From an uncultured Methanosarcinales archaeon (GTDB lineage: Archaea; Nanobdellota; Nanobdellia; Woesearchaeales; GW2011-AR9): a stretch of DNA of 64,000 nucleotides. This document shows positions 590 through 21,207 of this stretch, one piece after another. The stretch's first letter is position 1. Every line of letters starts with the position of its first letter. Below the pieces are notes generated by a model that saw only the letters and a program-made list of their open reading frames with translations, did not search any database and was not told where the DNA came from. The position numbers and the translations under genes are program-made. The stretch spans positions 29,124 to 93,123 of the forward strand of contig CAZGQD010000003.1 in the NCBI GenBank assembly GCA_964527395.1, given 5' to 3'.

Positions 590-901
590 ATGGAATTGAA
601 AGAAAAACAAAAGGAAATTGACTCTTGGATTGCTGAGCATGGAGGATATTGGCCAACTTTGAGTATTTTTGCACGATTAGTAGAAGAAGTAGGAGAATTG
701 GGTCGAGAATTGAACCACGTCTATGGGATGAAAAAGCGAAAAAAAGAAGAGAAAATTAAGTCTATTGAAGATGAAATAGGAGATGTTTTGGTTACTACAA
801 TGATGCTTTCAAATTCATTGGATATTGATTTGGAAGATGTGTTTGATAAGACTTTATGTAAAATGAATGTAAGAGATTCAAATAGAACAAAGGAAAAATG
901 A
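590..901 (+). CDS. MazG-like nucleoside triphosphate pyrophosphohydrolase (small all-alpha NTP-PPase)
   Basis: 103 aa; EEVGELGRE ... EDEIGDVL pattern typical of the MazG/YpjD NTP pyrophosphohydrolase fold. Confidence 0.55.
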   Translation: MELKEKQKEIDSWIAEHGGYWPTLSIFARLVEEVGELGRELNHVYGMKKRKKEEKIKSIEDEIGDVLVTTMMLSNSLDIDLEDVFDKTLCKMNVRDSNRTKEK

Positions 902-960
902 TTATTTTGTGTTTTAATAGAGTGATTTTTTGTTTTTATTAATAAAAATGCTGTTTTTTG

Positions 961-1189
961 GTACGTATTAAGTTGGCTAATTTCGAGCAAAGCTCTCTTG
1001 ACTTAGTTCATACTTCACTAAGTTTGAGTGTGCTTAGAAAATTAGCACTGCGGCACGGCCATACTCTGATTTGCAATAAAAATTAGGAAAATCCTGCGGA
1101 TTTTGTGTTTAAAATGAAAATTGCAAATCAGTGGCCTCGATGGGCGGCAGTGCTAATTCTCTATATTTTATAGCCAACTTAATACGTAC
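961..1189. repeat. 229-bp nested-palindrome element (MITE-like or structured ncRNA) with 19-bp perfect terminal inverted repeats GTACGTATTAAGTTGGCTA
   Basis: 961-979 is the exact reverse complement of 1171-1189. An inner ~36-nt imperfect inverted repeat (ttagcactgcggcacggcc...tgatttgcaat / attgcaaatcagtggcc...ggcagtgctaat) encloses a ggaaaatcc/ggatttt mini-palindrome. The internal motif cgagcaaagctctc is shared with the element at 39363-39695. Confidence 0.5.
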
Positions 1190-1194
1190 GTTTT

Positions 1195-1983
1195 TTGGTC
1201 ATTATATTTATAAAAAGGCCATTTGGCTTTATTTTTATGGATTTTGCAATAATTGCTCCAATAAATGTAATGAGAGAAGTAGCTTCTTTGTCAAGAACTT
1301 CAATGTATCTTTATCATTTGTTTAGAAACCAAGATTATGCAGCTTGCTATGGAGCAGATGGGAATTATCGAATTCTTGATAGTGGTGTGTTTGAGTTAGG
1401 AAGATTGCCTACAGGAAGAGATTATGCCAGAAGAATTGTTGAAATTTCACCAGATGAAATAGTAGCTCCAGATATAGTACATGATTCTAGAAGAACTTTG
1501 GAGTTGACTGATGAGTTTGCAAGAAGATATGCTTCTGAGTTTGATGGAATTAAAATTCAAGGAGTAGTTCAAGCTAGTAGTATAAATGGAGCTATAGATT
1601 GCTATAGGGCTCTAGTAGAAAATCCTTTAATTGATGTAATCGGTTTGCCTTCACGAATGGGTTTTGAATATAAAGGTAGAAGAGTTGGAAGAAGAGATTT
1701 AGTTAAAGTTCTCTTAGATAGGGGTTTGTTAGGAGATAAGGAAATTCATTTATTAGGTTTAAGAGATTTTGAAGATGTTTATTCTTTTAGGATGGTTTCA
1801 GTTGTTAGGTCTTGTGATACTAGTAAATTCTATAAAGATGCAAATGCAGGAATTTCTTATAGGGGAGGAGTTGCTAGGAGTAACTTAGGACAAAGGTTAG
1901 ATTTTAGTGCTGTTAGTGGTAGTGGTTGTTTAGAATTGCTTGAAGATAATATGGATGTTTTAAGGCAGATGATGGAGGAGTGA
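1195..1983 (+). CDS. hypothetical protein
   Basis: 262-aa ORF. The true start may be the internal Met (MDFAIIAP...), since the listed start abuts the palindromic element. The ILDSGVFELG segment faintly recalls the DSGGFQ motif of TGT/DpdA transglycosylases, but no Zn-binding C-terminal motif is present. Confidence 0.35.
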   Translation: MVIIFIKRPFGFIFMDFAIIAPINVMREVASLSRTSMYLYHLFRNQDYAACYGADGNYRILDSGVFELGRLPTGRDYARRIVEISPDEIVAPDIVHDSRRTLELTDEFARRYASEFDGIKIQGVVQASSINGAIDCYRALVENPLIDVIGLPSRMGFEYKGRRVGRRDLVKVLLDRGLLGDKEIHLLGLRDFEDVYSFRMVSVVRSCDTSKFYKDANAGISYRGGVARSNLGQRLDFSAVSGSGCLELLEDNMDVLRQMMEE

Positions 1984-1986
1984 TTA

Positions 1987-2985
1987 TTAATCTTGAGAGA
2001 GATATTTTAAGTATATTTGGAAGAATTTTTTATATGTATTGTTGTATTTTTCTATGATGAATCCGTGCAATTTGTCTTTGTGTTTATTATCAAAGGCTTC
2101 TAAAGCAGCAAAATAGGCTATTCTTTGAGTTTTTCTGATAATTAATGGAGGAAAGTTGTTTCTTAGTAGGATAAGATTGATTAAAAGTCGACCAGTTCTA
2201 CCATTACCATCAGAAAAAGGATGAATCTTTTCAAAAGTTGCATGGAAATTAGCTGCAATTTGTAATGGGTGGAGAGGATTGATTTTGTTTAGTTTGTTTG
2301 TTTCTAATGAGTTGATTAGTTTTTGCATCTCTTTTTTTACTTTTTCAGGAGGAGTTGTTTTTACTTTTCTCCCTAGAAGGAAATTAGGGAGTGTTTTGTA
2401 GTTTGGCTCTATTCCAGTGTTTTTTGTGAGGATTTTGTGAAGTTTGATGATAGATTCTTCTGTAATTTTTGGTTTTTTCTCGAAAATCCAGGTAATTGCT
2501 TCTTTTGTGTTGATAGTTTCGTGAATTTCTCTTAGATTCTTGTTTTTTGGGCTGATATTTTCAGTTATTAAGAAGGTAACGTCCTTTAAAGTAAGGGAGT
2601 TGCCTTCTAAAGCGTTCGATTCGTAAGTGAAATTTACTGTGAATCTGTCGATTATGTCTTGTTTTTGCTTAGTTGTGAGATTTTTAGTTAAGAATTTGTA
2701 ATCTTGGCGGATTTTTTCTAGCTTTTGTATCCTTTCTTTTGAAAAAATATGGTTAGTTTTGTAATAACTTGAAGCAGATTGCATGTAAGCTTGTTCAATT
2801 CTTTCTTTTATTTGGAAATTTGCTTGTTTTAATTGGTTGTTTTTGTTTGTTTCTTTATATGAAATAGGCTTGTGACTCTTTAAGTAGATAGAAATCTTTT
2901 TTACTTTGCCATCTATGGTTCTTATTGATTTTTCTAAGTAATATCTGGTTTTGTTATTGATTATTTTGGCTCTAATGAAGGACAT
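1987..2985 (-). CDS. Fic/Doc family protein (adenylyltransferase-type Fido domain)
   Basis: 332 aa containing the canonical Fic motif HPFSDGNGRTGR. Confidence 0.8.
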   Translation of the reverse strand: MSFIRAKIINNKTRYYLEKSIRTIDGKVKKISIYLKSHKPISYKETNKNNQLKQANFQIKERIEQAYMQSASSYYKTNHIFSKERIQKLEKIRQDYKFLTKNLTTKQKQDIIDRFTVNFTYESNALEGNSLTLKDVTFLITENISPKNKNLREIHETINTKEAITWIFEKKPKITEESIIKLHKILTKNTGIEPNYKTLPNFLLGRKVKTTPPEKVKKEMQKLINSLETNKLNKINPLHPLQIAANFHATFEKIHPFSDGNGRTGRLLINLILLRNNFPPLIIRKTQRIAYFAALEAFDNKHKDKLHGFIIEKYNNTYKKFFQIYLKYLSQD

Positions 2986-3041
2986 AGTTATTTTTACCCC
3001 TACTTTTTTATAAGTTTATTGGTTTTGTAGGGTTATTTCCT

Positions 3042-3458
3042 GTGTTTTGTTTCTTGATTTCGAAAGTAGTTGAAGCTATGAGAGATGATTTAACAAGAAA
3101 GATAAAGGATCTTGAAAATGAGGTTAAGATAGGAGAAGGTTTGATTAGAGATCAAAAAGTAGTTGTAGAGCAAGTTGCTGCTGATTTAAATAGAAGTCGA
3201 TTAATTGGATATGGATTAAGAGCTTTAAGTGCAGTTTTTTTTTTGACTGGTATGCTTGGGCTTTTAGGGATAGAGTATAATAATAGACAAAGAGACTTTG
3301 TTTCAAGTATTGCAAGTTATGATAGATGTCTTGAAGTAGTGGATTCAATGCAGGAAGAAGGTCTTGTAATGGATGGGAACTATGAGCCTTTGAGAAGTAT
3401 ATGTGGAGATAAGAGGTCATATGCTCCGTTACCAAGTAAATTACGTCAACTTTATTGA
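3042..3458 (+). CDS. hypothetical membrane-associated protein
   Basis: 138-aa ORF with one hydrophobic segment (AVFFLTGMLGLLGI); no recognisable motif. Confidence 0.35.
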   Translation: MFCFLISKVVEAMRDDLTRKIKDLENEVKIGEGLIRDQKVVVEQVAADLNRSRLIGYGLRALSAVFFLTGMLGLLGIEYNNRQRDFVSSIASYDRCLEVVDSMQEEGLVMDGNYEPLRSICGDKRSYAPLPSKLRQLY

Positions 3459-3459
3459 G

Positions 3460-6400
3460 TTAATCCAAATCTTTAATACTCTTTAGAATGTCATCGGCTT
3501 TGCCTTTCTTTTCTTTTACTGCAGTTGGGCTTGAACCGCCGTGCCAAGTGAACCTTGGACGCATTTGGATTGGGAAAAGACGTTCGTTGTTATCATCGAA
3601 AAGGATTGCTGCTCCTTTTTGTCTTGGAAGATTGTTTAATTCTACATCAAGACCAGTTCGCATATAACTTTGCATCAGAAGTCCTAGGGCCTCAACATCC
3701 ATTTTAGCTGTAAGTCTGTGGCTTAGGACAATGTCAGATTGAGTCATTACGTCAGTGTGGATCTTTCCTGGCTGTTGTGTTGCTAGTATGAGGGAGATAC
3801 CTGGTTGGCGACCTTCTCTTAAGATTGTGATTAATGGGTCACTTGCAGCAGTTTTACCTTCTCTAGGGAGGAGTTCGTGGCAATTGTGTGCAATTACGCC
3901 ATTTGCTATGAAATTGTGGTTTTGATTTACAGTGATATCGAAGAGTGGTTCAGCTGATTTTGTGGTTCTTTTTTGAATTTTTTCGTAAAAGATATTGTTT
4001 TTTAGTCTTTCTTTAATCCATTTGTCGAAGTTTGGAAAGGATTGGGGCATAGAAACACCACTATTTTTATAAATCCAATCTCTTACTTGGTAACTAGGAA
4101 TATTTAGTTCTTTTGCTATTTTTATTTTTCCCCAGCCAGTTTTTTCTCTGATTTGGAAAGCTTTTTTTCTTAAGTTTTCTCTTTGATTTAAGACGTATTT
4201 TCTGGCTTTAAGGTATTCTAACCATAAAAATCCTGTTTTTTGTTTGATTGAGCAATATCTGTAGCCAACTTTTTCTAAGTATTTTATGGTGTTGTCTACG
4301 CTTTTTGCTAAGGTTATGACTAGTTTAATTGATTTAGTTCCATCTTTTCTGATATTGCCTCTTCTTTGTTTGATTTGGCTGACTTTGATATTAAGGTCTG
4401 AGAAGAGTTTTTTAAGTTGATCAGTGTATTCAACTCCGTTTTCTGTTAGTTCTATGTGTTTATTGCATGAGAATCTGATTGGATTAAAGTCTCCACCCCA
4501 TGTTTTTGATTGTGAAGGAGCCATGCCGTCTGCTCCGAATAATGCTGCTAAAAATTCTGCTTTTTCTTCTTTTGAAGCTTTAGTTAACCATTTTGGAATT
4601 AGCATTTTGATGTTTGTTTTGCTTCCAACTGGAGCCCCTAATTTTTTGAAGTAGTCAAAAGTTTTAGCACTGGCGTTTATTGAGTGACTAGTTCCGTTTA
4701 CTGTTGCAGTTTTTCCTGAGACGTGGGTGATTTTAGAGCTTGTTTTTCTAGAATAGATGTTTGATGAAGTGAAACCTAGTGTTTTTAGGTCTTTTTTGAT
4801 CAAAAGTAGGTCATTTTTGTTTGATTTTCCACTAAAACCAACTTGTTTTGGATTATTACTTAGCCATCCATCTCCGAAAATGTGGCCTAGTAATCTTGCT
4901 CTGATTAGTTTTTTGTCTTGTTTATTTGGGATATTTGTAGGGATTGCAAGTTCTTTAGCATCTTTAGTTTCTTGGAAACCTTTTTTTGTGAATAGTTTGT
5001 GGTCTTCTGTGCATTTTATCTTTCTTCCAGTTTCAGTTGTTAGTTCTATTAGTTGTCTTTTTGGTTTTTTGTAGCTTTTAGTGATATTTTGGAATTCGAA
5101 GTCTTTTGTTTTTTGATTATAGCTCCAGGCTTTTAGTTTTTCTTTATTTTCTACTTTTTTTGTGATTTGTTTTATTGTTAATGTGCCTTGATCTGTAATA
5201 ATTGGGGTGTTTGCAGGGAAACATTCATCTATTGCGAGCCAAACCAAAGGGTCTTGTTGTTTTTCTTTTGTTTCTTTACTAAAATAATGCATTGCTTTGT
5301 CAACACTTTGGAATTCTTCAGATTTTCTGGAAAGCATTCTTTCTTGGAAGAGACGTTTACAGACGAGGCCAGCTACCATGGCTTTAATTTCCCAACCAGA
5401 AGGCATGGTTGCGTATGGACTTACATCTAAAACTGTTACCTGACCACCTTTAACAATGTCTTTTAATGGAGTTCCGTCTTTAGAGAATATTTTCCAGCCT
5501 TTGGCTTTTTCAAATGTGTTAATTACAACAGATTTAGTCACTTTTTGCGCTTCTTTGTCTGCTTTTGTTTGTTCTATTAGGTAATCTATTTCATAAGGTT
5601 CACCTTTATTGTTGGTGTTTAGAACTATTTTGCTGATAAGAACTCCTTCTGCAGTGTTTGATTCAATTTTGAAGGTTTCTAGCCAATCTTCTGGACCAAC
5701 GTCTAAAGGGCTGATTGAGAAAGGAAAGTCAGTAGGAATGCCTTCCTCTTTGTATTTGTAATAGAATCCTGATGGTGTGTAGATTTTCACATCTAGTGAT
5801 TTAGGGTCGAATCCCCATTTTTTAAGGAGTGGGGCATCTTGGTAATTTGGATATTTCATTGTCCAGTAAATACCCATTGTATCGAAAAGGACAATTGAGA
5901 GGTTTTGCTTTACTTCTTTTGGAAGGTCAGCTAAACCTTCAGCGATGGAACCCATGGTGTATGAGTTGTGGACTATAATGTTGTTTGCGATGAAGTTGTG
6001 AGTGTTTGGAACAGTTAAGTCGTATACTTCAAAATTTCCTTCTAAAAGTTCTATTTTGGTGATTTGGTCCCAGATTGCTTCTGAGTTTTGTTTTGATTCT
6101 TTTGGAACTGCAATTTGAGTTTGAATTGGAAGAGTTTGAGCAGCTTGCCAACCTTTTTTTGTTAGAAGTGGGTGCTCAGGAGTTAATTTTATTTGTTTAT
6201 TTGATTTTAGAGTAAGTTTTAGAAGAGTTTTAACTTCTCTTTGATAGAAATGAGTGAAAACAGTTGGGGTGATTTGGTTGTTTTTGTTTAGAGTGAGGAT
6301 TTTTGTTTTGTTTTCTTGGCCTTCTAAATTTTTGATTTTTACTTGTTCTCCACTGTCTAGTTGGATTAAAGTGTCACCATGAAGGCATTTTCCGCTACCT

Positions 6401-6573
6401 CTTTTCCCGCAAAGAAAGATTACGTGGGCTCCTGCAACGTCTAAATAAACTGGATTAGAAAGAGCAGTGGTTTGACCCATCTTTACGAACTGTTTTGCTA
6501 TGAAAATAGTTCCTCTTTTACCGTATTTTTTTACGTCATGTTTACTTCGTCCAATGATCACATCAAAAGCCAT
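3460..6573 (-). CDS. HerA/FtsK-like DUF87 P-loop ATPase interrupted by two inteins (extein about 449 aa)
   Basis: After removing the inteins: N-terminal barrel-like region, Walker A GKRGSGK|S split by intein 1, Walker-B-like LVWLAIDE immediately before intein 2, and a C-terminal LREGRQPGISLILATQQP segment resembling HerA (IAREGRKFGVGLTIVSQRP) and FtsK (GIHLVLATQRP). Confidence 0.65.
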   Translation of the reverse strand: MAFDVIIGRSKHDVKKYGKRGTIFIAKQFVKMGQTTALSNPVYLDVAGAHVIFLCGKRGSGKCLHGDTLIQLDSGEQVKIKNLEGQENKTKILTLNKNNQITPTVFTHFYQREVKTLLKLTLKSNKQIKLTPEHPLLTKKGWQAAQTLPIQTQIAVPKESKQNSEAIWDQITKIELLEGNFEVYDLTVPNTHNFIANNIIVHNSYTMGSIAEGLADLPKEVKQNLSIVLFDTMGIYWTMKYPNYQDAPLLKKWGFDPKSLDVKIYTPSGFYYKYKEEGIPTDFPFSISPLDVGPEDWLETFKIESNTAEGVLISKIVLNTNNKGEPYEIDYLIEQTKADKEAQKVTKSVVINTFEKAKGWKIFSKDGTPLKDIVKGGQVTVLDVSPYATMPSGWEIKAMVAGLVCKRLFQERMLSRKSEEFQSVDKAMHYFSKETKEKQQDPLVWLAIDECFPANTPIITDQGTLTIKQITKKVENKEKLKAWSYNQKTKDFEFQNITKSYKKPKRQLIELTTETGRKIKCTEDHKLFTKKGFQETKDAKELAIPTNIPNKQDKKLIRARLLGHIFGDGWLSNNPKQVGFSGKSNKNDLLLIKKDLKTLGFTSSNIYSRKTSSKITHVSGKTATVNGTSHSINASAKTFDYFKKLGAPVGSKTNIKMLIPKWLTKASKEEKAEFLAALFGADGMAPSQSKTWGGDFNPIRFSCNKHIELTENGVEYTDQLKKLFSDLNIKVSQIKQRRGNIRKDGTKSIKLVITLAKSVDNTIKYLEKVGYRYCSIKQKTGFLWLEYLKARKYVLNQRENLRKKAFQIREKTGWGKIKIAKELNIPSYQVRDWIYKNSGVSMPQSFPNFDKWIKERLKNNIFYEKIQKRTTKSAEPLFDITVNQNHNFIANGVIAHNCHELLPREGKTAASDPLITILREGRQPGISLILATQQPGKIHTDVMTQSDIVLSHRLTAKMDVEALGLLMQSYMRTGLDVELNNLPRQKGAAILFDDNNERLFPIQMRPRFTWHGGSSPTAVKEKKGKADDILKSIKDLD
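3883..5223 (-). mobile_element. large intein (447 aa) with a LAGLIDADG-type homing endonuclease domain
   Basis: Begins CFPANTPIITDQGT after the Walker-B-like DE and ends NGVIAHN followed by Cys. An internal LLGHIFGDGW block matches LAGLIDADG. Confidence 0.7.
5965..6387 (-). mobile_element. mini-intein (141 aa, no endonuclease domain) inserted in the P-loop of the ATPase
   Basis: Begins CLHGDT directly after GSGK and ends IVHN followed by Ser (+1 nucleophile). Flanking extein residues reconstitute GKRGSGKS. Confidence 0.7.
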
Positions 6574-6657
6574 AGTAGTTTTAGAGTTTCTTTTGATATA
6601 AAAGTTGCTAGGGTGGAGAAGGCAAAAGAATAAATATGTGGTTTTAGTTTATAGTTT

Positions 6658-7926
6658 ATGGGACTTAGATTTAATGTTTTGATTGTGTTTACTTTTACTG
6701 TTTTATTATTAGTAGGCTGTAGTGTTGAAGGGCCTGGTGATGATGATCGTCGTGGTGGTCATGAAGGGCCTAATCCTGAATATCTTGATTCTGAAGATGA
6801 TTCTAATGGTGCAGGAGATTCTGGTGGTCCTGATTTGGATGTTGAGGTGTTGCCTTTTCCACAAATAGATGCTAGTTATGTGACTTTTGCTGCTGCTGAA
6901 GGGACTTATGCTTATGATGGAAAAACTCCTGTTTATGTTACTTTTAATTCTCATAATGAAGATTCTTGGGGAAGTGTAGTTGGAAATGAGCAGGCTTATA
7001 CTTCTTATCGTAGGAATTTAGTTGAGAAACTTAAATTGATCTCTGAGAATGGTGCTAAGTTGCATTGGCAAACAGATACAGTTGTGTTGGAGGCTATGGC
7101 AGAGTTTGAAGATAGTATAGATAATGGTGATACAAATGGAAAGCATATTTTGAAGTATATATCTGAAGATCTTGGTTTTAGTATTGATCCTCATTCCCAT
7201 TCTACTTTGCTTTCTGATGTGGCTTATTTAATTGAAGAGGAAGGTGTTTCTTCTTCAAGTGTAGTTGGGGGAGTACTTGCTTTTGAGTGTGAAGATAATG
7301 GGGAATTGGAAGGTTCTTTTTCAGGAAGTGATTGGTATGATGAGTTGTTTTTGTCTGGTGATGGTTTGATTAGTGGAGGAGAGTATGATTATAGTTGGGA
7401 ACCTTCAATTTTGTCTGGAGCTGGAATGGGTGGACATTTTTATGATGATTTTTCTAGTGGAATATGGAAGCCAGGTAATGAAGATGATTTTTATGAGCAT
7501 GATTCAAGAAATGATTTGGTTCATATAGGAACTGGATATTCTTCTGATAAAGCTAATGTTGGGAATTTACTGGCTAGTGGAGCAGTAGTGTATTATGAAA
7601 ATGGAGGTTATGTTAGGGAACTTGCTTCAATGATTGAAAGTGGGAAAGTTCCTAGTGGGAAAATGTATACTGCTACAATTCATTTGAGAGATTTGCCAAC
7701 TGTTCGTGTAAAAGATGGGTCAGTTGTAGATACCTTGGAAGGGTTATCTTTGATTTTAGGGGAGCTAGAGCCTTTAGTTTCTGATGGACTTGTAGAATAT
7801 GTGCTTTATGATGAAGCAGTTTCTATTTGGGAAGGTTCGTATGGGGCTGAAGCTAATATATTGCCGTTTAGTCAGTTCAGTATGTATGATTCTGTGTTAG
7901 AGCAGGCTAAGGGGAGGTGTCGGTGA
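6658..7926 (+). CDS. secreted acidic lipoprotein, function unknown
   Basis: N-terminal signal with lipobox-like LLVGCS, then a Gly/Asp/Ser-rich linker; composition noticeably more GC-rich than neighbouring genes. Confidence 0.45.
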   Translation: MGLRFNVLIVFTFTVLLLVGCSVEGPGDDDRRGGHEGPNPEYLDSEDDSNGAGDSGGPDLDVEVLPFPQIDASYVTFAAAEGTYAYDGKTPVYVTFNSHNEDSWGSVVGNEQAYTSYRRNLVEKLKLISENGAKLHWQTDTVVLEAMAEFEDSIDNGDTNGKHILKYISEDLGFSIDPHSHSTLLSDVAYLIEEEGVSSSSVVGGVLAFECEDNGELEGSFSGSDWYDELFLSGDGLISGGEYDYSWEPSILSGAGMGGHFYDDFSSGIWKPGNEDDFYEHDSRNDLVHIGTGYSSDKANVGNLLASGAVVYYENGGYVRELASMIESGKVPSGKMYTATIHLRDLPTVRVKDGSVVDTLEGLSLILGELEPLVSDGLVEYVLYDEAVSIWEGSYGAEANILPFSQFSMYDSVLEQAKGRCR

Positions 7927-7956
7927 GTGGTTTTTTTTAATATTTTTTAGAAAAAG

Positions 7957-9084
7957 TTACTTTTGAAGATTTTGCATGAAAGCAATTTTGTTTTCGATAG
8001 GAGTTTTTGTTGGACGTCCTAAATCTTTTCTAGCACCTTTGTTAACAAGGATTTCTAGGAAAACTGGACCTTTCATATCTTTAATTTGGTTCAAATACTT
8101 GATTATTTGATTAGAGTCTTGTGCTTTGAAGGCTGTTTTGTAACCTGAAGCTAGAGCAATTTGGGGAAAATTGATCTCGTGAGCTACTGTAGGTTGGCCG
8201 CCAACAGAATCATGAGCGCCATTGTTAAAGATAATATGAATAAAATTTTCTGGAGCTAAGTCAGCAATGATTGGGAAAGAACCCATGTGCATGATTGCTG
8301 CTCCATCACCATCAAAACAATAAATTTTTTTGTTTGGTTTAGTTAGAGCAATTCCAAGCGCAATTGAGGAGGCATGACCCATACAACCAATTGTTAAGAA
8401 GTCTCTGTGATGGCCAGAGTTTGTTGCAACTCTATGCTCGAAAAGTTCTCGTGACGTTTTTCCTGTGGTTGAAACAATTATCGCTTCGTTGCCAATATGG
8501 TCTGAAACTAATTTAACTGCGTCTTCTCTGCTTAATTCGAAATTTGTGTTGGTGTTGTTTTGTAATTTGTATGCTTCGAATGTGTTTTTTTTGATAACTA
8601 AAGCGTAAGGAGAATTGTTTGTTCTCATGAACTCTTTTGCTTTTTGAATAGTTTCGTTGATGTTTTGACTTTCTGAGTGGATTATAGAGTAAGGTATTCC
8701 TAAGAGTTCTAATTGTTGTTGAGTAATTTCACCCATTTTTTTATGTTGAGGTTCATCTTTTACGCCAGGTTCGCCTCTCCAACCTACGATTAAGAGTGCT
8801 GGGATTGAATATGCTTGAGGATCTGTTAATGATGTAGTTGGATTAACTATGTTTCCTAAGCCAGAATTTTGCATGTAGACTACTGCAGGGTTGTTTGTTG
8901 CTAGGAAGTGACCTGCAGCCATGCCAAGAGCGTTTCCTTCATTTGCAGTAATTACGTTTTGTTTAGGATTAGTATTATCAGTAATATAAGCACAAATTGC
9001 TTTTAGAAGAGAATCAGGGACTCCGAAAAAGGTGTCAAATCTGTGATTTTTTAGAGTATTGTAAAAGATTTCAGGTTTTATCAT
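7957..9084 (-). CDS. thiamine-diphosphate enzyme of the phosphonopyruvate/sulfopyruvate decarboxylase family
   Basis: 375 aa. N-terminal TPP pyrimidine-binding region (GVPDSLL...ANEGNALGMAAG) and C-terminal TPP motif GDGAAIMHMGS...NNGAHDSVGGQPT. Size and architecture match single-chain Ppd/ComDE. Confidence 0.6.
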   Translation of the reverse strand: MIKPEIFYNTLKNHRFDTFFGVPDSLLKAICAYITDNTNPKQNVITANEGNALGMAAGHFLATNNPAVVYMQNSGLGNIVNPTTSLTDPQAYSIPALLIVGWRGEPGVKDEPQHKKMGEITQQQLELLGIPYSIIHSESQNINETIQKAKEFMRTNNSPYALVIKKNTFEAYKLQNNTNTNFELSREDAVKLVSDHIGNEAIIVSTTGKTSRELFEHRVATNSGHHRDFLTIGCMGHASSIALGIALTKPNKKIYCFDGDGAAIMHMGSFPIIADLAPENFIHIIFNNGAHDSVGGQPTVAHEINFPQIALASGYKTAFKAQDSNQIIKYLNQIKDMKGPVFLEILVNKGARKDLGRPTKTPIENKIAFMQNLQK

Positions 9085-9152
9085 TTTCTTGATAAGGTAT
9101 TCTAATATTGCCTTTTTAAAGTTTATTTAAGTAGGTTCTTTTTGAAAAGAGG

Positions 9153-10289
9153 TTATTGAATTTGGTTTATTATATTTTTAATATCTTCTTTTGACATTTT
9201 TCGGGGATTGTTTTTTAAACGCTCTAAATTAATGTTGCTAATGATTAATTCTGAGCAATCATTTATGTTTAGTTTAGAAAGACTTGTTTCTAATTCTAAG
9301 TTTTGAATAAGATCTTTGATTTTTTTTGCAGCTTGAGTAGATGAATTTGTTCCTAGAATCTTTTGTAGCTCTAGAAATGTTTCTTTAACGTGATCTAGGC
9401 CTCTTGGATCATTAATGTCGTAGCCTTCTTTTGTTGTTTGTGAATTGAAAAGGAAAGTTGAGGGGAGTGTTAGAGCTACAGCATGACCGTGAGGTATGTT
9501 GAAGTAAGAAGTGAAAGTGTAAGAAATAGCATGACAAGCAGTGGTTTTTGAAATGTTAATTGCTTTTCCAGCCAAATTTGCAGCAATTTGAATCTTTTGT
9601 TTAGTTTCTGAATTGGGGTTTTGAAGATTTTTTACTCCGTATTCAAGGATTAGTTGCAATGCTTCTTTAGCATATTTCTTTGAAATTGGAGTTGAATTAA
9701 CACTCCAGTAAGATTCTAAAGCTTGGGAAAATGCATCCATAGTAGTTGAAGCAGTTATGTATTTAGGAAGACTATTTGTAAGGTTTGAGTCTAAAATGAC
9801 GTATTTAGGTAGCATACTTTGATGGGTTAGAGAATACTTTTGTTTGCTGATGTAGACTACTGCGAAATGAGTTGCTTCGCTTCCAGAACCAGCTGTAGTT
9901 GGAACTGCTATTATAGGGATTCCAGGATTGTTTATTTGCGATTTTTTGGTGATATAGTTTGCTATGTTTTCATTTTGGTCTTGTTTAACTATCAGTGCTA
10001 TAGATTTGGCCATATCTATGACACTACCACCGCCTATTGCAAGAATTATTTTTGAATTTGTTTTTTGGTAAAGTTCAAGTCCTTTTTGCACATCTTCAAT
10101 TTTGGGGTTTTTTGCGAAGTCTGAGAAGAATGTTTTGTTGATATCATTCGTAATTGCTTCTATTTTTTGTTTTGCGCCACTTTTTTCGTAAGAAGTTTTA
10201 CCTGTGACTATGAAGATGTTTTTGATATTATTTGAAGCTATGATCCCTTGAAGATCTTCTAATTTGTGGTATTCTTGCTGGCTATTCAT
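9153..10289 (-). CDS. iron-containing (group III) alcohol dehydrogenase
   Basis: GGGSVIDMAK and PTTAGSGSE motifs. Position next to the Ppd-like gene suggests a phosphonoacetaldehyde-reductase-like role. Confidence 0.7.
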   Translation of the reverse strand: MNSQQEYHKLEDLQGIIASNNIKNIFIVTGKTSYEKSGAKQKIEAITNDINKTFFSDFAKNPKIEDVQKGLELYQKTNSKIILAIGGGSVIDMAKSIALIVKQDQNENIANYITKKSQINNPGIPIIAVPTTAGSGSEATHFAVVYISKQKYSLTHQSMLPKYVILDSNLTNSLPKYITASTTMDAFSQALESYWSVNSTPISKKYAKEALQLILEYGVKNLQNPNSETKQKIQIAANLAGKAINISKTTACHAISYTFTSYFNIPHGHAVALTLPSTFLFNSQTTKEGYDINDPRGLDHVKETFLELQKILGTNSSTQAAKKIKDLIQNLELETSLSKLNINDCSELIISNINLERLKNNPRKMSKEDIKNIINQIQ

Positions 10290-10395
10290 GATGTAAGGAG
10301 TAAAATTGTTTTTTTATAAGTTTTTTTAATGAATAATTAAGGATTTTGATTTAGAAGTTAATAAAAATAATAAAAAAAGTGGTTTAGTTAGTTTC

Positions 10396-11709
10396 TTATA
10401 GGTTCTTTTCGGTTAGGATTTGGATGCTTGTTTTGCCACCAGTTGTATCCTTACCAGCAATTAAGTAACTAACCTTTAATTTTTCAGCTGTTTTTGCTAG
10501 TTCTAAATTAACTTCGCCATCAAGAACAATTGCGTGGATTCCTCCTCCAAGGCTTTTAATGGTGGAATTTAGCTCTGTTAGAGGTACTTTACCTAGAATT
10601 GATAGTTTGCCATCAAAGATGCATGCGCCTCTAGTTCCGAAAAGGTCTTCCAAAGTTTCTTTGAATTTCTTTTTCTCACTGTCAGCTAGAGCTTTTGTAG
10701 GAGTTCTAGCTGCGGGAGTGTCTCTTGGAGATGATCTTTGGTTTGATCTCATAGGTTTTTTGTTCCGATCATTGTTCCTATTTCGATCGTTTCTATCATT
10801 TCTTTTGTTATCGCTTCGTTTGATAACTTTTTGTTTTAATTTGATATCTTGGTTGATCAATTCTCCAGTTTCAGTGATACCCAGGTCTAATCTAGCTTGC
10901 TCGGCTGTGATTTTTCCTCTCAAAGCTTTGTGGATTTCTTTTTTAGTTAGTTCTTCCACTTCTTTTCCATCAGGAGCACGGCAGACGAAGTCAACTTCAG
11001 CTACAGTAACTAATTCTCTGATGTTTAGGTTTCCACCACGGTCACCATCAACAAAAACAGTCATTGATTTCTTTTTAGATAATTCAATTAATGTTTTTGG
11101 AACTGAACTACCTTCCATGGAAATAGCGTTCTTGAAACCGTGCTTTAAAAGGATTAGAACATCAGCTCTACCTTCAACAACGATTACATCTTCACTATCT
11201 TCAATAGCCGGGCCACAAGGTAATTTGTCTTTACCATATTTTTTGATCTCATTCATTCTTACTGATTGTGCAACTTCTTGACTAATTTCTTGAGAGTCAG
11301 GAAGAGTGTGTTCAGTTAAGTTTTGTAAAAGCTCTTTAGCTCTTTTAATTACGTAGAGTCTTTTACTAATTCTGATATCTTCAATGGATTCAACCTTTAA
11401 CTTAGCGTTACAAGGCCCAATTCTTTGAATGATTTCTAGAGCAGCTCCAATAATTGCTGTTTCAGTTTTGTCTAAACTACTTGGAATAACAATTTCCCCA
11501 GTGGTTTTTCCACCAGTTGTAGATAAGTTTACTTCGATTCGACCAACTTTACCTGATCTTTGAAGTTCTCTTAGTTCTAGGTCACTTCCTAGTAATCCTT
11601 CAGTTTGTCCGAAAACAGCACCAATTACGTCTGGTCTGTCTACAATTCCATCAATTTTTATTGAAGTATGAACAATATATTTTGCTGCTACTTGGCTAAT
11701 TTTTGCCAT
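10396..11709 (-). CDS. dnaG: archaeal DnaG-type (TOPRIM) primase / exosome-associated DnaG
   Basis: N-terminus MAKISQVAAKYIVHTSIKIDGIVDRPDVIGAVFGQTEGLL matches archaeal DnaG, TOPRIM acidic cluster VVVEGRADV...DGDRGG is present, and a low-complexity R/N/D linker separates the domains. Confidence 0.8.
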   Translation of the reverse strand: MAKISQVAAKYIVHTSIKIDGIVDRPDVIGAVFGQTEGLLGSDLELRELQRSGKVGRIEVNLSTTGGKTTGEIVIPSSLDKTETAIIGAALEIIQRIGPCNAKLKVESIEDIRISKRLYVIKRAKELLQNLTEHTLPDSQEISQEVAQSVRMNEIKKYGKDKLPCGPAIEDSEDVIVVEGRADVLILLKHGFKNAISMEGSSVPKTLIELSKKKSMTVFVDGDRGGNLNIRELVTVAEVDFVCRAPDGKEVEELTKKEIHKALRGKITAEQARLDLGITETGELINQDIKLKQKVIKRSDNKRNDRNDRNRNNDRNKKPMRSNQRSSPRDTPAARTPTKALADSEKKKFKETLEDLFGTRGACIFDGKLSILGKVPLTELNSTIKSLGGGIHAIVLDGEVNLELAKTAEKLKVSYLIAGKDTTGGKTSIQILTEKNL

Positions 11710-11764
11710 TTTTATTTCACCTTTTGTGTGTTTAATACAAAGTTTATGTTTATTTTTTTCTTTG

Positions 11765-11852
11765 TATGTACTCGTCCGTAAATATTTATTAATACTTGGT
11801 TACGGATTCGAGACACAGTTCCGTAAACGAAACTGCGTGTTTAGAACGCAGT
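11765..11852. promoter_or_regulatory. conserved ~65-nt element (copy 1) with mutually exclusive hairpins built from TCCGTAA / TTACGGA blocks
   Basis: gtatgtactcgtccgtaa...cttggttacggattcgagacacagttccgtaa is near-identical to 33926-34016. The TTACGGA block can pair with either the upstream or the downstream TCCGTAA. Confidence 0.45.
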
Positions 11853-12287
11853 AATAGAATTAGCTCTTACAAAAGCAATAGTTTTGCAATTGTAGTTATA
11901 GTACTAGTCTACTTTCATTGCCAGGTGGTTTTTAGTAGATGTTTAGGTTTGTCAGGTCCTAAGTTGTAATACTTAAATGAGTTAATTGATTATTACTATT
12001 CGTTCAGGTATTGAACTTTGTTTTTTAATTCAATACCGGTTTTGCGATTATCGCAGTGAAGTTGTCAATTTCACTTTCTTACTTTAATGTTTTTAGAAAT
12101 CACTATCATCCTTGCTGCTACAATATCTGGTAGCTTGCAAGCTAAATACTTTTTTTACAAATTAAATGATGAATGTGATTTCTGATATTTGATTGTAATA
12201 CTTAGTTACTGGGTTAGGTACGGGTTTGGGGTTTATAAATGTTGTGTTTGGCTTGGTTTTAGGGTGTTTTTAGTGTGTAAAGTAGGT

Positions 12288-12673: not shown

Positions 12674-13795
12674 ATGCTTATAAATATGAGTTGTTTTGAG
12701 AGAAAAATGGCAAAAGTGATGGTTCTTACTGATCAAACAACAGGAAGGCGAGTTGTAGTTAGAGGTAACACTCAAATTGGAAGACTCTCTTTTCATGAAA
12801 GAGGAATGTGGAAGGTAAGGGGAAGAAATAAACCTAAAGTTTTTGATAGTTTAGATACTTTAGTTTGTGTTTCTGAAGTAAATAAAGTAGTTTCTAGAAA
12901 TCATGCTGCTTTAATCCAGGGAGTTGATGGAGAATTTCATATTGAAGATATGAATAGTAAGCATGGAACTTATGTAAATGGGGATAATATAAACCCAAGT
13001 AAAAGTGATTCAAGGAGTGTATTATTAAGAGAAAGGGATGCTCTTCAGATTGGAAGAAGAACTCGTGGAATTGATGATTGTTTTTTGAATTTTGAAATTT
13101 CTTATCAAGAGTCTGAAAATTATGCATTGCTTGTTGGTACTGGGTCTGATAATTTAGGGGCTGCGCAAAGAGGTTTAGATTCTTTGGAAAGAGTTCTTAG
13201 GAGAAGAGGGTATGTTGTTAGGGTTTTACCTGAAGAAGAAGCAAGCAAATCTAGATTAAGAGAAGAATTAAGAAATATTGCAAATATGTCTATTGCAGAA
13301 TCACATAATATTATTTCAATTTATGGGCATGGAAGCCATAATGGTTTTATGTTGGGTGGACAAGTAATGAATGCAAGAGAATTTTATAAAGAAGTAGGGA
13401 GGATTGCTGGGAAAAAAGCAGCTTTATTGGAGTTTTGTTATTCAGGATCTTTTGTAAGGGGAAGAAATTTAGGGAGGATTCCTGATGGTACTTTAGTTTT
13501 GACAGCATCTAATGCATTTAGTGAAGCAAATGAGACAGAAGATTATGTTGAAGGTCAAGAAGAATTAAGATCAGAATACATAGGTAGATTGGCTAAACAG
13601 TTTGCAGGATATTTGGAAAGAAACCCAGGGCAAATTAATTTGAGGGAATTTTATGATCAATTGAGTGTAGTTTTAGGTGCTAGGAATTTGATGTTGCAAG
13701 GACCTCAGATAGAAGGAGATTTTTACGAGATTCCTGCGGTGAATGAAGGGTTTCATACAGTTATTCTTGATGTTGATCAAATTGAGAATTACTAG
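12674..13795 (+). CDS. FHA domain fused to a caspase/metacaspase/legumain-like cysteine peptidase domain
   Basis: FHA signature VSRNHAALIQ...IEDMNSKHGTYVNG. C-terminal half has YALLVGTGSDNL, the His motif IYGHGSHNG and the Cys motif LLEFCYSGSF, matching the caspase-hemoglobinase fold (C14/C13) catalytic dyad. Confidence 0.65.
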   Translation: MLINMSCFERKMAKVMVLTDQTTGRRVVVRGNTQIGRLSFHERGMWKVRGRNKPKVFDSLDTLVCVSEVNKVVSRNHAALIQGVDGEFHIEDMNSKHGTYVNGDNINPSKSDSRSVLLRERDALQIGRRTRGIDDCFLNFEISYQESENYALLVGTGSDNLGAAQRGLDSLERVLRRRGYVVRVLPEEEASKSRLREELRNIANMSIAESHNIISIYGHGSHNGFMLGGQVMNAREFYKEVGRIAGKKAALLEFCYSGSFVRGRNLGRIPDGTLVLTASNAFSEANETEDYVEGQEELRSEYIGRLAKQFAGYLERNPGQINLREFYDQLSVVLGARNLMLQGPQIEGDFYEIPAVNEGFHTVILDVDQIENY

Positions 13796-13827
13796 TTTTT
13801 ATGCTGGTTTTTTGAGAAGTTCTTTGG

Positions 13828-13979
13828 TTGCGCAATTTGCTCGTTTTGTTTTGTTTTTCTGCGCAATTTTCCCAGTTGATTCTATTTTGCTTGTTTTTGT
13901 CTGATTTTGTGCTTAAATTTCTTGTTTTTTGGCTGCGCAATTTTCCCGTTTGTTTTTATTTTAGTGCGCAATTTTCCCA
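13828..13979. promoter_or_regulatory. four copies of a palindrome-containing operator-like repeat (T/C)TGCGCAATTT(T/G)C(CC/TC), arranged as two pairs
   Basis: Occurrences begin at 13828, 13859, 13933 and 13965 (spacings 31, 74, 32 bp). TTGCGCAA is a perfect palindrome. Located directly upstream of the RelA/SpoT-like gene. Confidence 0.45.
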
Positions 13980-14013
13980 AAGTTTTAAAAAAGAGGGTTT
14001 CTTTTATGGTGTT

Positions 14014-15081
14014 ATGAAGAAAATTGATCTTAAAAAGTTCTCTAAATCTAAGACAGATTGGGCTGGAAAAGTACTTTGTGATTCTAGTAGGTCGGAAGAG
14101 GATAAAAATGTTGCCTTAGAGATTCTTAGCAATTGGAGGGCTGCACATAGTTATCCTATGCATATTTTTACTAATCGGTTACGTAGAATTTCAGGGAGTT
14201 TGGATTCAGGGGCTTTAGTAGCTCAGAGGCTTAAAAGAGTTCCATCGATAATTAAGAAACTTAAGCGTAGTTATGGTGGCAAAAAGGCTAGTATGAAACT
14301 TAGTCAGATGCAAGATATTGCAGGATGTAGGGTAGTTATGTCAGATATAGATTTAGTTAGGAAGATTTATTCTGAGTATTATGTTAATGGGGATTTGAAG
14401 CATGAAAAAGTTAATGAGAAGAATTACATCTTGAACCCTAAAAGTGATGGATATCGAAGCATACATTTGATTTATAGATTTTTTAGTGACAAAGGTAAGG
14501 CAGATTATAATGGGCTTCTTGTTGAAGTGCAAATACGTTCTAAATTACAGCATTTGTGGGCTACAGCTGTTGAAACTGTTGATTTTTTTACTAGGCAAGC
14601 AATTAAATCTAATCAAGGGCAAAAGGATTGGGCGGATTTTTTTAGATTGGTTAGTTCTGCGTTTGCTCTGTTTGAGGGATGTAGCTCTGTTCCTGGAGTT
14701 CCTATTCGGGAGAAAGAGTTGTATGCTATGATTTTTAAAATGGAAAAAGAATTGCAAGTTCGTCGTAAGATGAAGAGTTGGATGGAATCTATAGAAGTCT
14801 TAGATGAGATGAAGAGTAAATATGGTAGTTCTTACTTTTTATTGGAGCTTGATACTGTTCGAGGAAAATTGATAGTTACTGGTTATTCAAAAAAGCAGGA
14901 GAAAAGAGCTCTTAGAGAATATTCTGAAGTTGAGAAGAGAATATATGGCAGGCCTGAGTATGATGTGGTTTTAGTTGGAGCAGATACAAGTGAAGATTTG
15001 AAGAAAGTGTATCCTAACTATTTTTTAGATACTCGAGATTTTATTAGGTACTTGAATCTTATTTTGAAGAAGGTTAAATAG
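14014..15081 (+). CDS. RelA/SpoT-domain nucleotidyltransferase (small alarmone synthetase / toxSAS-like) with a ~150-aa C-terminal extension
   Basis: All synthetase-domain blocks present: RLKRVPSIIKKLKR, MQDIAGCRVVM, SDGYRSIHLIY, VEVQIRSKLQHLWATAVE. Start trimmed to MKKIDLKKF, because the listed upstream extension translates the operator repeats. Confidence 0.75.
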   Translation: MKKIDLKKFSKSKTDWAGKVLCDSSRSEEDKNVALEILSNWRAAHSYPMHIFTNRLRRISGSLDSGALVAQRLKRVPSIIKKLKRSYGGKKASMKLSQMQDIAGCRVVMSDIDLVRKIYSEYYVNGDLKHEKVNEKNYILNPKSDGYRSIHLIYRFFSDKGKADYNGLLVEVQIRSKLQHLWATAVETVDFFTRQAIKSNQGQKDWADFFRLVSSAFALFEGCSSVPGVPIREKELYAMIFKMEKELQVRRKMKSWMESIEVLDEMKSKYGSSYFLLELDTVRGKLIVTGYSKKQEKRALREYSEVEKRIYGRPEYDVVLVGADTSEDLKKVYPNYFLDTRDFIRYLNLILKKVK

Positions 15082-19804: not shown

Positions 19805-20091
19805 TGAAAATAATTTGATTAGATGAGAAGAAAAAGATTTAGCAATGTTTTGTTCTTGAATTATATAATTCAAGAAAAGAGCACTGTCAGACTTAGTGCA
19901 GGCATAAACCACTCAGTTTGGAATTTTGGTTTGTTTCAAACCAAAATCTGGTGGTTGGATTTAATGTGCTGGATGACATTGCCAGTAGGTGTCCGCGAGG
20001 AAACCTCTTGGGACTTGGTTCGCGTGCTCACCAAGGGACGGCGCTCTTTTCTTTTGAGAATATAGATAAATTTGTAGGTATTGAGATTAAA

Positions 20092-21207
20092 ATGGCAGGA
20101 AAAGCAAGTGCAGGGAAAGGAGCAAAGGTTGATGTAGTAAAAAAGATTCAAGATGTTGCTAAAGGTATCTATGATGATGTTCTTTTGCTTAAAAAGCCAG
20201 ATTTAGTTATGCCAATTAGGTCGCTTAGTAATGTAGCTTATAACGAAAAGGATGGGTATTTTCAGATACTTAGTAAAGTTAAAACTCGTACGCTTTCTGC
20301 TACTACAATCAAGACTTTTGCACAGACTCTTAGAATGATGGGTCTTTCTAAAGATTTGATTAAAGGAAAAGATCTTGCAACTAAAAGAGAGGCTTATTAT
20401 GTTTCCAAAAACTGGGGAGATGCTAGGTTCAAAGAACAGCCGGAGTCAGATACAGTAATGGATGATATCGAAGCTATGATGCGAGTTAATCGTGAACAAA
20501 TTGGCTTTGTACCTGAGGAGAAAGGTGGAGCTGTTGCTGGTGCACTTACAGTTATTGATAAAGATTCAGAGACAGGAGAGAAGCTTGAGATTGATTGTAC
20601 CAAATTTGGTTCAGGTGCTTATTCGGTTCCTTCATCAGTAGAGCATTTATCGTTTAAAACAAAAGCAAAGTTTGTACTTGCTATTGAAACATCAGGTATG
20701 TTTGAGAGGCTCAATAAGCATAAGTATTGGAGAAAAGCGAATTGTATTTTGATTTCAATGGGAGGAGTACCAACTCGTGCTTGTAGACGGTTTATTCGTA
20801 AATTGTCTGATGAAAAGGATCTTCCTGTATATGTATTTACGGACGGGGACCCCTACGGTTTTTTCTCAATATATCGAACACTTCGTGTTGGGTCAGGTAA
20901 TGCAGCTCACATAAATGAGTTCTTTTGTGTACCTAGAGCTAGGTTTTTAGGAGTAACTCCGCAAGACATTGTTGATTATAATCTTCCTACTCATCCTCTT
21001 AAAGATGTGGATTACAAAAAAATTAAGGATGTTTTGAAAAATGATCCATTCTGTAAACAACATAAAGAGTGGCAAAAAGCTCTTGCGCAAATGGTTAAGA
21101 TGAAGGTAAGAGTTGAGCAGCAGGCGTTTTCTGCAAAGGGATTGAACTACGTTTTAGAGACTTATTTGCCTGAAAAGATTGCTAACCCTAAGAAATGGCT
21201 GCCTTAG
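20092..21207 (+). CDS. top6A: DNA topoisomerase VI subunit A (Spo11-type)
   Basis: TOPRIM region VYVFTDGDPYGFFSIYRTLRVGSGN and upstream 5Y-CAP region. Start set at MAGKASAGKG, which follows the GC-rich leader. Confidence 0.9.
   Translation: MAGKASAGKGAKVDVVKKIQDVAKGIYDDVLLLKKPDLVMPIRSLSNVAYNEKDGYFQILSKVKTRTLSATTIKTFAQTLRMMGLSKDLIKGKDLATKREAYYVSKNWGDARFKEQPESDTVMDDIEAMMRVNREQIGFVPEEKGGAVAGALTVIDKDSETGEKLEIDCTKFGSGAYSVPSSVEHLSFKTKAKFVLAIETSGMFERLNKHKYWRKANCILISMGGVPTRACRRFIRKLSDEKDLPVYVFTDGDPYGFFSIYRTLRVGSGNAAHINEFFCVPRARFLGVTPQDIVDYNLPTHPLKDVDYKKIKDVLKNDPFCKQHKEWQKALAQMVKMKVRVEQQAFSAKGLNYVLETYLPEKIANPKKWLP

Follow-up and report, generated by a model that had tools for sequence, protein, structure and literature searches.

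Two class-1 inteins in the ATPase motifs of a HerA-clade protein from DPANN archaea

Introduction

The P-loop and the Walker B motif of ATPases are well-known hot spots of intein insertion (PMC4760082, PMC10643990), and inteins favour proteins of replication and repair as hosts (PMC4760082). The inteins MCM-a and VMA-b sit directly after the Walker A lysine (PMC10643990), P-loop inteins also occur in DnaB (DnaB-b) and RFC-S (RFC-S-a), and Walker B inteins are found in PolIII-gamma and MCM (PMC4760082). Mutual interference in homing between several closely spaced intein sites has been examined in haloarchaeal MCM (PMC10643990). The gene described here lies in a 64,000-nucleotide stretch (the window) of contig CAZGQD010000003.1, from an uncultured archaeon labelled Methanosarcinales and placed in the Woesearchaeales by GTDB. 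It encodes an ATPase related to HerA, in which one intein splits the Walker A motif and a second one follows the Walker B motif.

With high probability, this gene product is the precursor of a HerA-clade P-loop ATPase that is kept inactive until two class-1 inteins have spliced, and that may serve as a housekeeping translocase. Intein insertion at the P-loop and at Walker B is itself already known; the host protein and its inteins are new, their sequences being public but unannotated. A literature search revealed no publication that deals with this ATPase of DPANN archaea or with its inteins, and the main text of a 2016 intein survey does not mention HerA. The gene adds a new host to the ATPases with inteins in the P-loop and at Walker B.

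Architecture of the precursor

The reading frame of 3.1 kb is unbroken across the whole two-intein gene, and parsing of its translation shows two insertions, after removal of which 449 amino acids (aa) remain (Table 1). This spliced extein is 86% identical over 100% coverage to an intein-free homologue of 449 aa, P0001 (E = 4.5e-264), and more than 100 further proteins of 445-450 aa match it at 67-82% identity. The colinear match to P0001 indicates that the reconstruction is in frame and seamless, and that both junctions are exactly placed. A protein identical to the precursor (P0121) is encoded on eight public metagenome contigs (ENA, JGI, Logan) from several samples.

Both insertions are class-1 inteins, as judged by several independent lines of evidence. 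Each has Cys at position 1, a TxxH motif in block B, a terminal His-Asn and Ser or Cys at position +1. The TIGR models for the N- and C-terminal intein regions both score above cut-off (TIGR01443 intein_Cterm, E = 1.1e-16), and Pfam matches to Intein_splicing, Hint and Vint in the precursor point to the Hint fold. A first-pass annotation of the window, made from its letters alone, had proposed a 141-aa mini-intein that splits Walker A as GKRGSGK/S (here and below, a slash marks the splice junction), a 447-aa LAGLIDADG intein behind a Walker-B-like DE, and a 449-aa extein. All coordinates and lengths were right, and the canonical residues it had named are in place (Cys63 and Cys451; IIVHN/S and VIAHN/C). 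In profile searches, the intein blocks were present in both elements, and the extein was not out of frame.

Intein 1 is bordered by FLCGKRGSGK/CLHGDT and NIIVHN/SYTMGS, with Ser as +1 residue. Its block A reads CLHGDTLI, block B TPEHPLLT (TPEH at aa 131-134) and blocks F/G VYDLTVPNTHNFIANNIIVHN. It matches Pfam Intein_splicing (E = 1.1e-22), and its residues 2-141 align over the full length with the NpuDnaB mini-intein of known structure, 4o1r (E = 7.7e-23). The two halves of intein 1 are each 54-65% identical to inteins of ~428 aa that occupy the same site in related genomes, and precisely the LAGLIDADG domain is gone from the alignment. This identifies intein 1 as an endonuclease-deleted descendant of those longer inteins, and the loss of the endonuclease domain should leave it immobile and restricted to vertical inheritance. 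Other mini-inteins at this site have different deletion breakpoints, indicating that endonuclease loss occurred repeatedly. As a compact natural mini-intein of 141 aa, intein 1 could also be tried as a splicing tool.

Intein 2 is bordered by LVWLAIDE/CFPANT and GVIAHN/CHELLP, with Cys as +1 residue, and has CFPANTPII as block A, TEDHKLFT as block B (TEDH at aa 522-525) and LFDITVNQNHNFIANGVIAHN as blocks F/G. It matches Pfam Intein_splicing (E = 5.8e-22), and the NCBIfam model RtcB_rel_intein covers its endonuclease region (aa 555-899) with E = 1.5e-71, while the match to Pfam LAGLIDADG_3 is marginal (9.2e-5, 23.1 bits against a cut-off of 22.5). In an alignment of 43 inteins from the same site, C1, T72 and H75 of block B, D118, D232, H446 and N447 are all invariant, and the catalytic Asp residues of both LAGLIDADG motifs remain invariant across 43-50 such inteins. 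The AlphaFold (AF2) model of intein 2, computed from 43 input sequences, reaches a predicted local distance difference test (pLDDT) score of 94.1 and a predicted template modelling (pTM) score of 0.91. In a Foldseek search against the PDB, the endonuclease-bearing inteins TliVMA and PhoVMA (3.5e-16) and PI-SceI are its best matches, followed by LAGLIDADG meganucleases (I-OnuI, I-AniI) and many mini-inteins. Residues ~325-406 form an extra helical region with weak helix-turn-helix-like matches. The homing endonuclease of intein 2 is apparently intact and, with both catalytic Asp residues kept, could mediate homing into intein-free DEAH alleles; the corresponding intein-free allele of P0001 encodes WIAIDEAHELLP.

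Splicing would proceed by established intein chemistry, for which the conserved residues are present: an N-S acyl shift at Cys1 would be followed by transesterification, with the +1 Ser as acceptor in intein 1 and the +1 Cys in intein 2, by cyclisation of the terminal Asn, and by the acyl rearrangement that yields the peptide bond. Intein 1 separates the Walker A Lys from the next Ser, and intein 2 the Walker B Asp-Glu from the (A/C)HE motif. Because both the Walker A and the Walker B region are interrupted, the precursor should neither bind nor hydrolyse ATP. Both inteins must leave to give the predicted product, a 449-aa ATPase with GKRGSGKS and DECH motifs.

The G+C content of the inteins is 0.33-0.34, compared with 0.37-0.43 for the exteins. 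The coding-strand GC skew of intein 1 is -0.38, in step with the strong local strand bias, and this agreement, seen especially in intein 1, may speak against a very recent arrival of the inteins. Upstream of the start codon, TTTATAT is possibly an archaeal TATA box, which would imply a nearly leaderless transcript. A promoter and terminator scan gave nothing above chance with its bacterial-type models, which are not meaningful for an archaeon.

Table 1. Features of the precursor gene, intein insertion sites of the ATPase family and the upstream dnaG-like gene (window coordinates; site positions in extein numbering)
Feature	Position	Strand	Description	Basis
Precursor ORF (open reading frame)	3460..6573	-	1037 aa + stop; N-extein, intein 1, middle extein, intein 2, C-extein	ORF list, junction parsing
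N-extein	6388..6573	-	aa 1-62; ends with first Walker A part GKRGSGK (6388-6408)	junction parsing
Intein 1	5965..6387	-	aa 63-203, 141 aa, site b (K62/S63)	Pfam Intein_splicing, 4o1r alignment
Middle extein	5224..5964	-	aa 204-450; +1 Ser completing GKS, helix-bundle insertion, Walker B LVWLAIDE (5224-5247)	
Intein 2	3883..5223	-	aa 451-897, 447 aa, site c (E309/C310)	Pfam, NCBIfam, AF2, Foldseek
LAGLIDADG motif 1 of intein 2	4867..4893	-	LLGHIFGDG; Asp D118 invariant	
LAGLIDADG motif 2 of intein 2	4525..4554	-	FLAALFGADG; Asp D232 invariant	
C-extein	3460..3882	-	aa 898-1037 + stop; CHELLP, REGRQPG, LATQQP (HerA/FtsK-type sensor motif), RPRFTWHGG	
TTTATAT	6596..6602	-	23-29 nucleotides upstream of ATG; candidate archaeal TATA box	read from the sequence
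Site a	after residue 59 (G59/S60)		GKRG/SGKS; 21 sequences; full-length inteins ~370 aa	
Site b	after residue 62 (K62/S63)		GKRGSGK/S; 71 sequences; full-length inteins ~428 aa	
Site c	after residue 309 (E309/C310)		DE/CHE; 46 sequences; full-length inteins ~447 aa	
Archaeal DnaG-like Toprim protein	10396..11709	-	upstream, same strand as ATPase	Pfam Toprim_4, Toprim_2, Toprim

An intein hot spot in the ATPase family

Large insertions were mapped in all retrieved homologues, a non-random sample, with P0001 as reference. At least 115 homologues carry inteins, always at the same three sites (Table 1), so that the family is, on this evidence, an intein hot spot and the present case is no rarity in it. 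Shortened forms occur at each site, namely mini-inteins of 139-185 aa at sites a and b and a single 383-aa form at site c. Sites a, b or c are occupied alone, or a and b each in combination with c; a double occupancy of a and b was not seen among the 115 intein-bearing homologues. This does not amount to mutual exclusion of sites a and b in a statistical sense, since the sample is not random and fewer than one double would be expected among the 46 proteins with a site-c intein.

The sites have separate intein lineages, each with full-length and shortened members, and the three lineages share only ~23-24% identity, indicating that the sites were invaded independently. The +1 residue of site c is Cys in all 46 carriers, while the 173 intein-free proteins have Ala (166), Ser (6) or Gly (1), but never Cys, at this position. 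Because the +1 Cys replaces a near-invariant Ala, the spliced window protein reads DECH, where its relatives read DEAH, and homing of intein 2 into a DEAH allele would bring the Ala-to-Cys change along. With its three sites, of which a and b are separated by just three residues, the family represents a compact natural data set on how inteins are gained, how their endonucleases decay and how neighbouring sites interfere.

The extein belongs to the HerA clade

The spliced extein matches Pfam DUF87 ("Helicase HerA, central domain") with E = 1.9e-11 and contains the motifs of a RecA-like ATPase of the additional strand, catalytic glutamate (ASCE) type, i.e. GKRGSGKS, LVWLAIDE, REGRQPG and LATQQP. 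No variation is seen in the Walker A residues G56, K57, G59, G61, K62 and S63 across 42 diverse homologues. A family profile from 42 diverse homologues, searched against the PDB, retrieved HerA structures with 1e-25 to 1e-18, STIV B204 with 7e-8 and FtsK with 3.5e-5; the alignment with HerA extends over the C-extein.

The AF2 model of P0001 (pLDDT 90.9, pTM 0.89) gave only HerA chains as top Foldseek matches (TM-scores of ~0.6), the best being T. kodakarensis HerA-NurA (2.5e-19). The set also includes HerA of D. radiodurans and S. solfataricus, as well as two defence complexes, SIR2-HerA and DUF4297-HerA. In the model, helices at 127-136, 153-160, 167-181, 188-196 and 203-217, between strands of the RecA-like core, make up an insertion (residues ~127-232) that in the prediction corresponds to the helix-bundle domain of HerA (domain definitions from PMC9960219). 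By sequence profile and predicted fold, the extein is a member of the HerA clade.

No curated family captures the protein in scans with Pfam and NCBIfam/TIGR profiles. With the NCBIfam HerA equivalogs it reaches 25-35 bits, where the cut-offs are 800-970 (NF040819, 30.6 against 970; NF040937, 25.4 against 800). Pfam FtsK_SpoIIIE stays below its cut-off (22.1 bits against 24; 1e-4) and matches over the last third of the profile only, the Pfam matches to Zot (7e-7) and AAA are weak and partial, and profiles of transfer ATPases remain far under their cut-offs (CedB, E = 0.065; CedD, E = 0.0023; VirB4_plasma, E = 0.042). The comparison of the extein with HerA, VirB4 and FtsK profiles, which the first-pass annotation had suggested, thus favours HerA (1e-25 in the PDB search, against 3.5e-5 for FtsK).

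The same annotation had called the extein a HAS-barrel/DUF87-type ATPase. Its assignment to the DUF87 HerA/FtsK superfamily agrees with the Pfam match and the fold; the HAS-barrel has to be withdrawn. No Pfam match to a HAS-barrel was found in the extein at E <= 0.1, and the Walker A Lys is residue 62, while the aligned position is ~150-170 in HerA structures. Only ~50 residues precede the P-loop strand, compared with ~144-166 in HerA, and in the P0001 model they form three short strands and one helix only. In HerA, the HAS-barrel is the NurA interface (PMC9960219); since NurA docks onto this domain, its absence from the extein fits the absence of NurA from the locus.

Distribution and genomic context

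When GTDB was scanned with one genome for each species, at least 596 genomes were seen to encode a relative of the ATPase. The best 80 of these matches all derive from metagenome-assembled or single-amplified genomes of Woesearchaeota/Nanoarchaeota, some with placeholder "Methanosarcinales" labels. More remote relatives (30-50% identity) occur in other DPANN archaea such as Aenigmarchaeota and also in Asgard archaea, where some forms have long extra domains. Among 2.9 million viral contigs of IMG/VR, only six weak relatives (<=34% identity) were detected, and a viral or mobile origin of the ATPase was rejected on this ground.

Neighbourhoods were counted in 80 woesearchaeal species loci. Housekeeping genes surround the ATPase gene in the window and in its relatives, encoding Topo VI A and B, a KH protein, Rio1, archaeal DnaG, eIF-1A and others. 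DnaG is the commonest recurrent neighbour, present at 40 of the 80 loci, upstream on the same strand at 33 and within 250 bp at eight. NurA, Mre11 and Rad50 were found neither among the window ORFs scanned (those within ~12 kb and most of at least 200 aa up to ~59.5 kb) nor in the annotation of the surrounding +/-10 kb, and none of them is a recurrent neighbour at the 80 loci, in line with the first-pass statement that these neighbours are lacking.

The gene downstream of the ATPase varies by lineage; its product is a protein of 133/149 aa, one that resembles guanylate cyclases, or one of 445 aa. At 32 of the 80 loci, a conserved protein of ~97 aa (MxFSKSFPK...YPxWEEV...LFEKRASHxVYWKE) is encoded downstream on the same strand, with a median gap of 60 bp (e.g. 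L089, 7807-8109; L065, 2804-3250). Neither the window nor its closest relatives encode this protein, which may be a partner restricted to certain lineages. Also recurring near the ATPase are a divergent PpiC/SurA-like gene and the gene of a Trp/Tyr-tRNA synthetase; both look like plain synteny.

Relative to the closest intein-free relative genome (L005), two insertions flank the window ATPase. The one between dnaG and the ATPase gene (6658-10289) encodes a 422-aa lipoprotein that has no Pfam match, a thiamine pyrophosphate-dependent enzyme and an Fe-alcohol dehydrogenase; the two enzyme genes resemble a phosphonate-type gene pair. The downstream insertion (590-3458; L001, 13116-15984) encodes a 138-aa coiled-coil/transmembrane protein, a Fic protein (1987-2985; PADLOC PDC-S04/SoFic, 2.6e-41), a 262-aa protein of unknown function and MazG. 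This Fic/MazG block separates the ATPase gene from the genes that usually follow it, and is possibly an island of defence or toxin genes. Another fic gene is located at 51538-52776 on the minus strand.

Outside the ATPase locus, a free-standing LAGLIDADG protein of 374 aa is encoded at 21188-22312 on the minus strand (Pfam LAGLIDADG_3, 6e-18; motifs LAYFLGILYADG and FIIGFFDGDG). Its relationship to the endonucleases of the inteins is distant, with 21-27% identity. Its gene overlaps, on the opposite strand, the 3' end of the Topo VI A gene (19918-21207), which in the window is ~60 aa longer than in relatives. An FHA-domain protein followed by a RelA/SpoT-domain protein resembling small alarmone synthetases is encoded at 12674-15081 (plus strand) of this DPANN archaeon, and the pair is kept on other contigs that bear the same precursor (L001, L002).

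The window has a G+C content of ~34% and a plus-strand GC skew of +0.12 to +0.47 in nearly every 2-kb bin of positions 1-64000 (~0 in 10001-12000). Plus-strand genes average +0.41, and minus-strand genes still show +0.16, so that minus coding strands are C-rich; protein composition is likewise split by strand into G/D/E/V-rich and K/N/Q/T/I-rich proteins. The median absolute skew is 0.05 in 80 other woesearchaeal loci, and only a few marine relatives (L026, L005) come near the values of the window.

Functional interpretation and alternatives

Judging by its predicted fold, the mature protein most likely forms a ring and translocates nucleic acids in an ATP-driven manner, as a motor of the HerA type. 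Strong conservation, the housekeeping neighbourhood with dnaG and the heavy intein load favour a housekeeping role in DNA metabolism. Replication, repair or segregation of DNA comes out as the best candidate role, with roughly even chances. Several observations weigh against this interpretation. The structural model of the extein was built on P0001, which is 86% identical, and not on the window protein, and a universally conserved partner gene was not found at the 80 species loci. Linkage to dnaG drops from 10 of the 11 closest relatives to 6 of 19 and then 11 of 29 with increasing divergence. As a sign of function the linkage is suggestive, and because of this decay it is weak evidence for a functional link; it may reflect residual synteny rather than functional coupling. 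The best PADLOC match of the ATPase is a defence protein, mad8 (E = 1e-19, 69 bits, full length), and a 34%-identical relative in Helarchaeota (L011, 6001-7344) is encoded in a defence-like island, between genes for a PglZ-like (Phosphodiest) protein of 1012 aa, a small AAA protein and a phosphoadenosine phosphosulfate (PAPS)-reductase-like protein, which resembles a BREX/Dnd context. This defence-like setting indicates that the wider ATPase family is functionally mixed and not devoted to housekeeping throughout.

An ordinary HerA helicase engaged in double-strand-break resection, with NurA (and Mre11/Rad50) encoded elsewhere, would explain why all the closest solved structures are HerA, HerA-NurA complexes included, and why a Dna2/PDDEXK-type nuclease is encoded ~7 kb away in this and some related genomes. 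The absence of the HAS-barrel, the docking site of NurA (PMC9960219), makes this canonical role quite unlikely, as do the lack of nurA, mre11 and rad50 among the window ORFs scanned and among recurrent neighbours at the 80 loci and scores of ~30 bits where HerA equivalogs require 800-970. Defence genes are, as a rule, patchy in their distribution and fast-evolving. An anti-phage or anti-plasmid ATPase of the HerA-Sir2, HerA-DUF4297 or MADS mad8 type is suggested by the mad8 match, behind which many defence HerA models follow in PADLOC, by the PglZ-like and PAPS-reductase-like genes in Helarchaeota, and by the fic gene block adjoining the ATPase gene in the window. It is nonetheless very unlikely, given an ATPase that is 70-86% identical across many genomes, occurs in at least 596 species and resides among housekeeping genes. 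The Fic/MazG block is an insertion that the closest relative lacks, and the 80 loci contain no conserved effector partner. The probability is slighter still for a secretion, conjugation or virus-packaging ATPase of the VirB4/CedB, FtsK/SpoIIIE, Zot or A32/B204 type. The weak, partial matches to Zot, FtsK_SpoIIIE (under cut-off), EccC, CedD/CedB and STIV B204 that speak for it are confined to the shared C-terminal ASCE core, while HerA profiles match better by many orders of magnitude; transmembrane segments and a conserved membrane partner are lacking, and viral contigs contain almost no relatives.

The inteins themselves have been weighed as conditional switches that gate the ATPase post-translationally, e.g. 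in response to redox conditions via Cys1 and Cys+1 of intein 2. Both inteins sit exactly in catalytic motifs, so that the precursor cannot be active, and conditional splicing of an ATPase-domain intein is documented for RadA (PMC4513877). An essential regulatory role is nevertheless at odds with most orthologues being intein-free, and the sporadic occupancy, in varied site combinations and with full-length and mini forms, fits a selfish cycle of gain, decay and loss, which renders a switch function improbable. That the gene is a decaying pseudogene, or its inteins dead for splicing, is extremely unlikely. Intein 1 has lost its endonuclease, and intein 2 has Phe at position 2, where at least 90% of its relatives have Leu, but the frame is intact over 3.1 kb, all splicing-block residues are present, the 86% identity to intein-free orthologues speaks for purifying selection, and the identical protein recurs on eight contigs from several samples.

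The ATPase without HAS-barrel could be a DPANN-specific essential motor that works with the DnaG primase encoded upstream, as a translocase at replication forks or in chromosome segregation, and is gated by splicing at both catalytic motifs. Such a motor would take over functions that are missing from the reduced DPANN genomes; this bolder proposal is unlikely to be right. The main lead is the extein itself, a strongly conserved, uncharacterised HerA-like ATPase in hundreds of Woesearchaeota/Nanoarchaeota genomes, and knowledge of its role would close a gap in the understanding of these organisms.

Comparison with known systems

Intein 1 occupies the same structural position as MCM-a and VMA-b, and shares with them the class-1 type, Cys1, the terminal His-Asn and the occurrence of full-length and mini forms (PMC10643990, PMC4760082). 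Unlike the MCM, V-ATPase, DnaB and RFC hosts, the host described here is a HerA-clade ATPase of DPANN archaea. A further difference from MCM-a and VMA-b is the second P-loop site of the window family, located three residues upstream (G59/S60) and held by an unrelated intein lineage of ~24% identity. Like PolIII-gamma-a and MCM-d/e, intein 2 is inserted right after or around the Walker B acidic residues (PMC4760082), but unlike in these inteins, its +1 Cys replaces a near-invariant Ala and converts the motif to DECH. Its best structural counterparts, TliVMA, PhoVMA and PI-SceI, combine a Hint domain with a two-motif LAGLIDADG endonuclease in the same way (PMC8966425); sequence identity to the VMA inteins is only 11-18%, and the helical region at ~325-406 is an addition of intein 2.

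The extein differs from mad8, SIR2-HerA and DUF4297-HerA in the lack of an effector partner at the loci surveyed, in its housekeeping neighbourhood and in its high conservation over hundreds of species; the ATPase fold is similar, and the match to mad8 is full length but weak, whereas the others are partial. Modules of a methyltransferase, kinase or nuclease were not seen beside the gene in the window or its relatives. With HerA of S. solfataricus (4d2i), T. kodakarensis (9x1l/9x1m) and D. radiodurans (7wrw), the extein shares the RecA-like ASCE core, the helix bundle and the motifs EGR(K/Q)xG, (A/S)xQ(R/Q)P and HGG. Compared with these proteins, it is ~100-150 residues shorter at its N-terminus, lacks the HAS-barrel and is encoded at loci without a visible NurA/Mre11/Rad50 operon. 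Lacking the domain that docks NurA, it is probably not engaged in canonical HerA-NurA resection.

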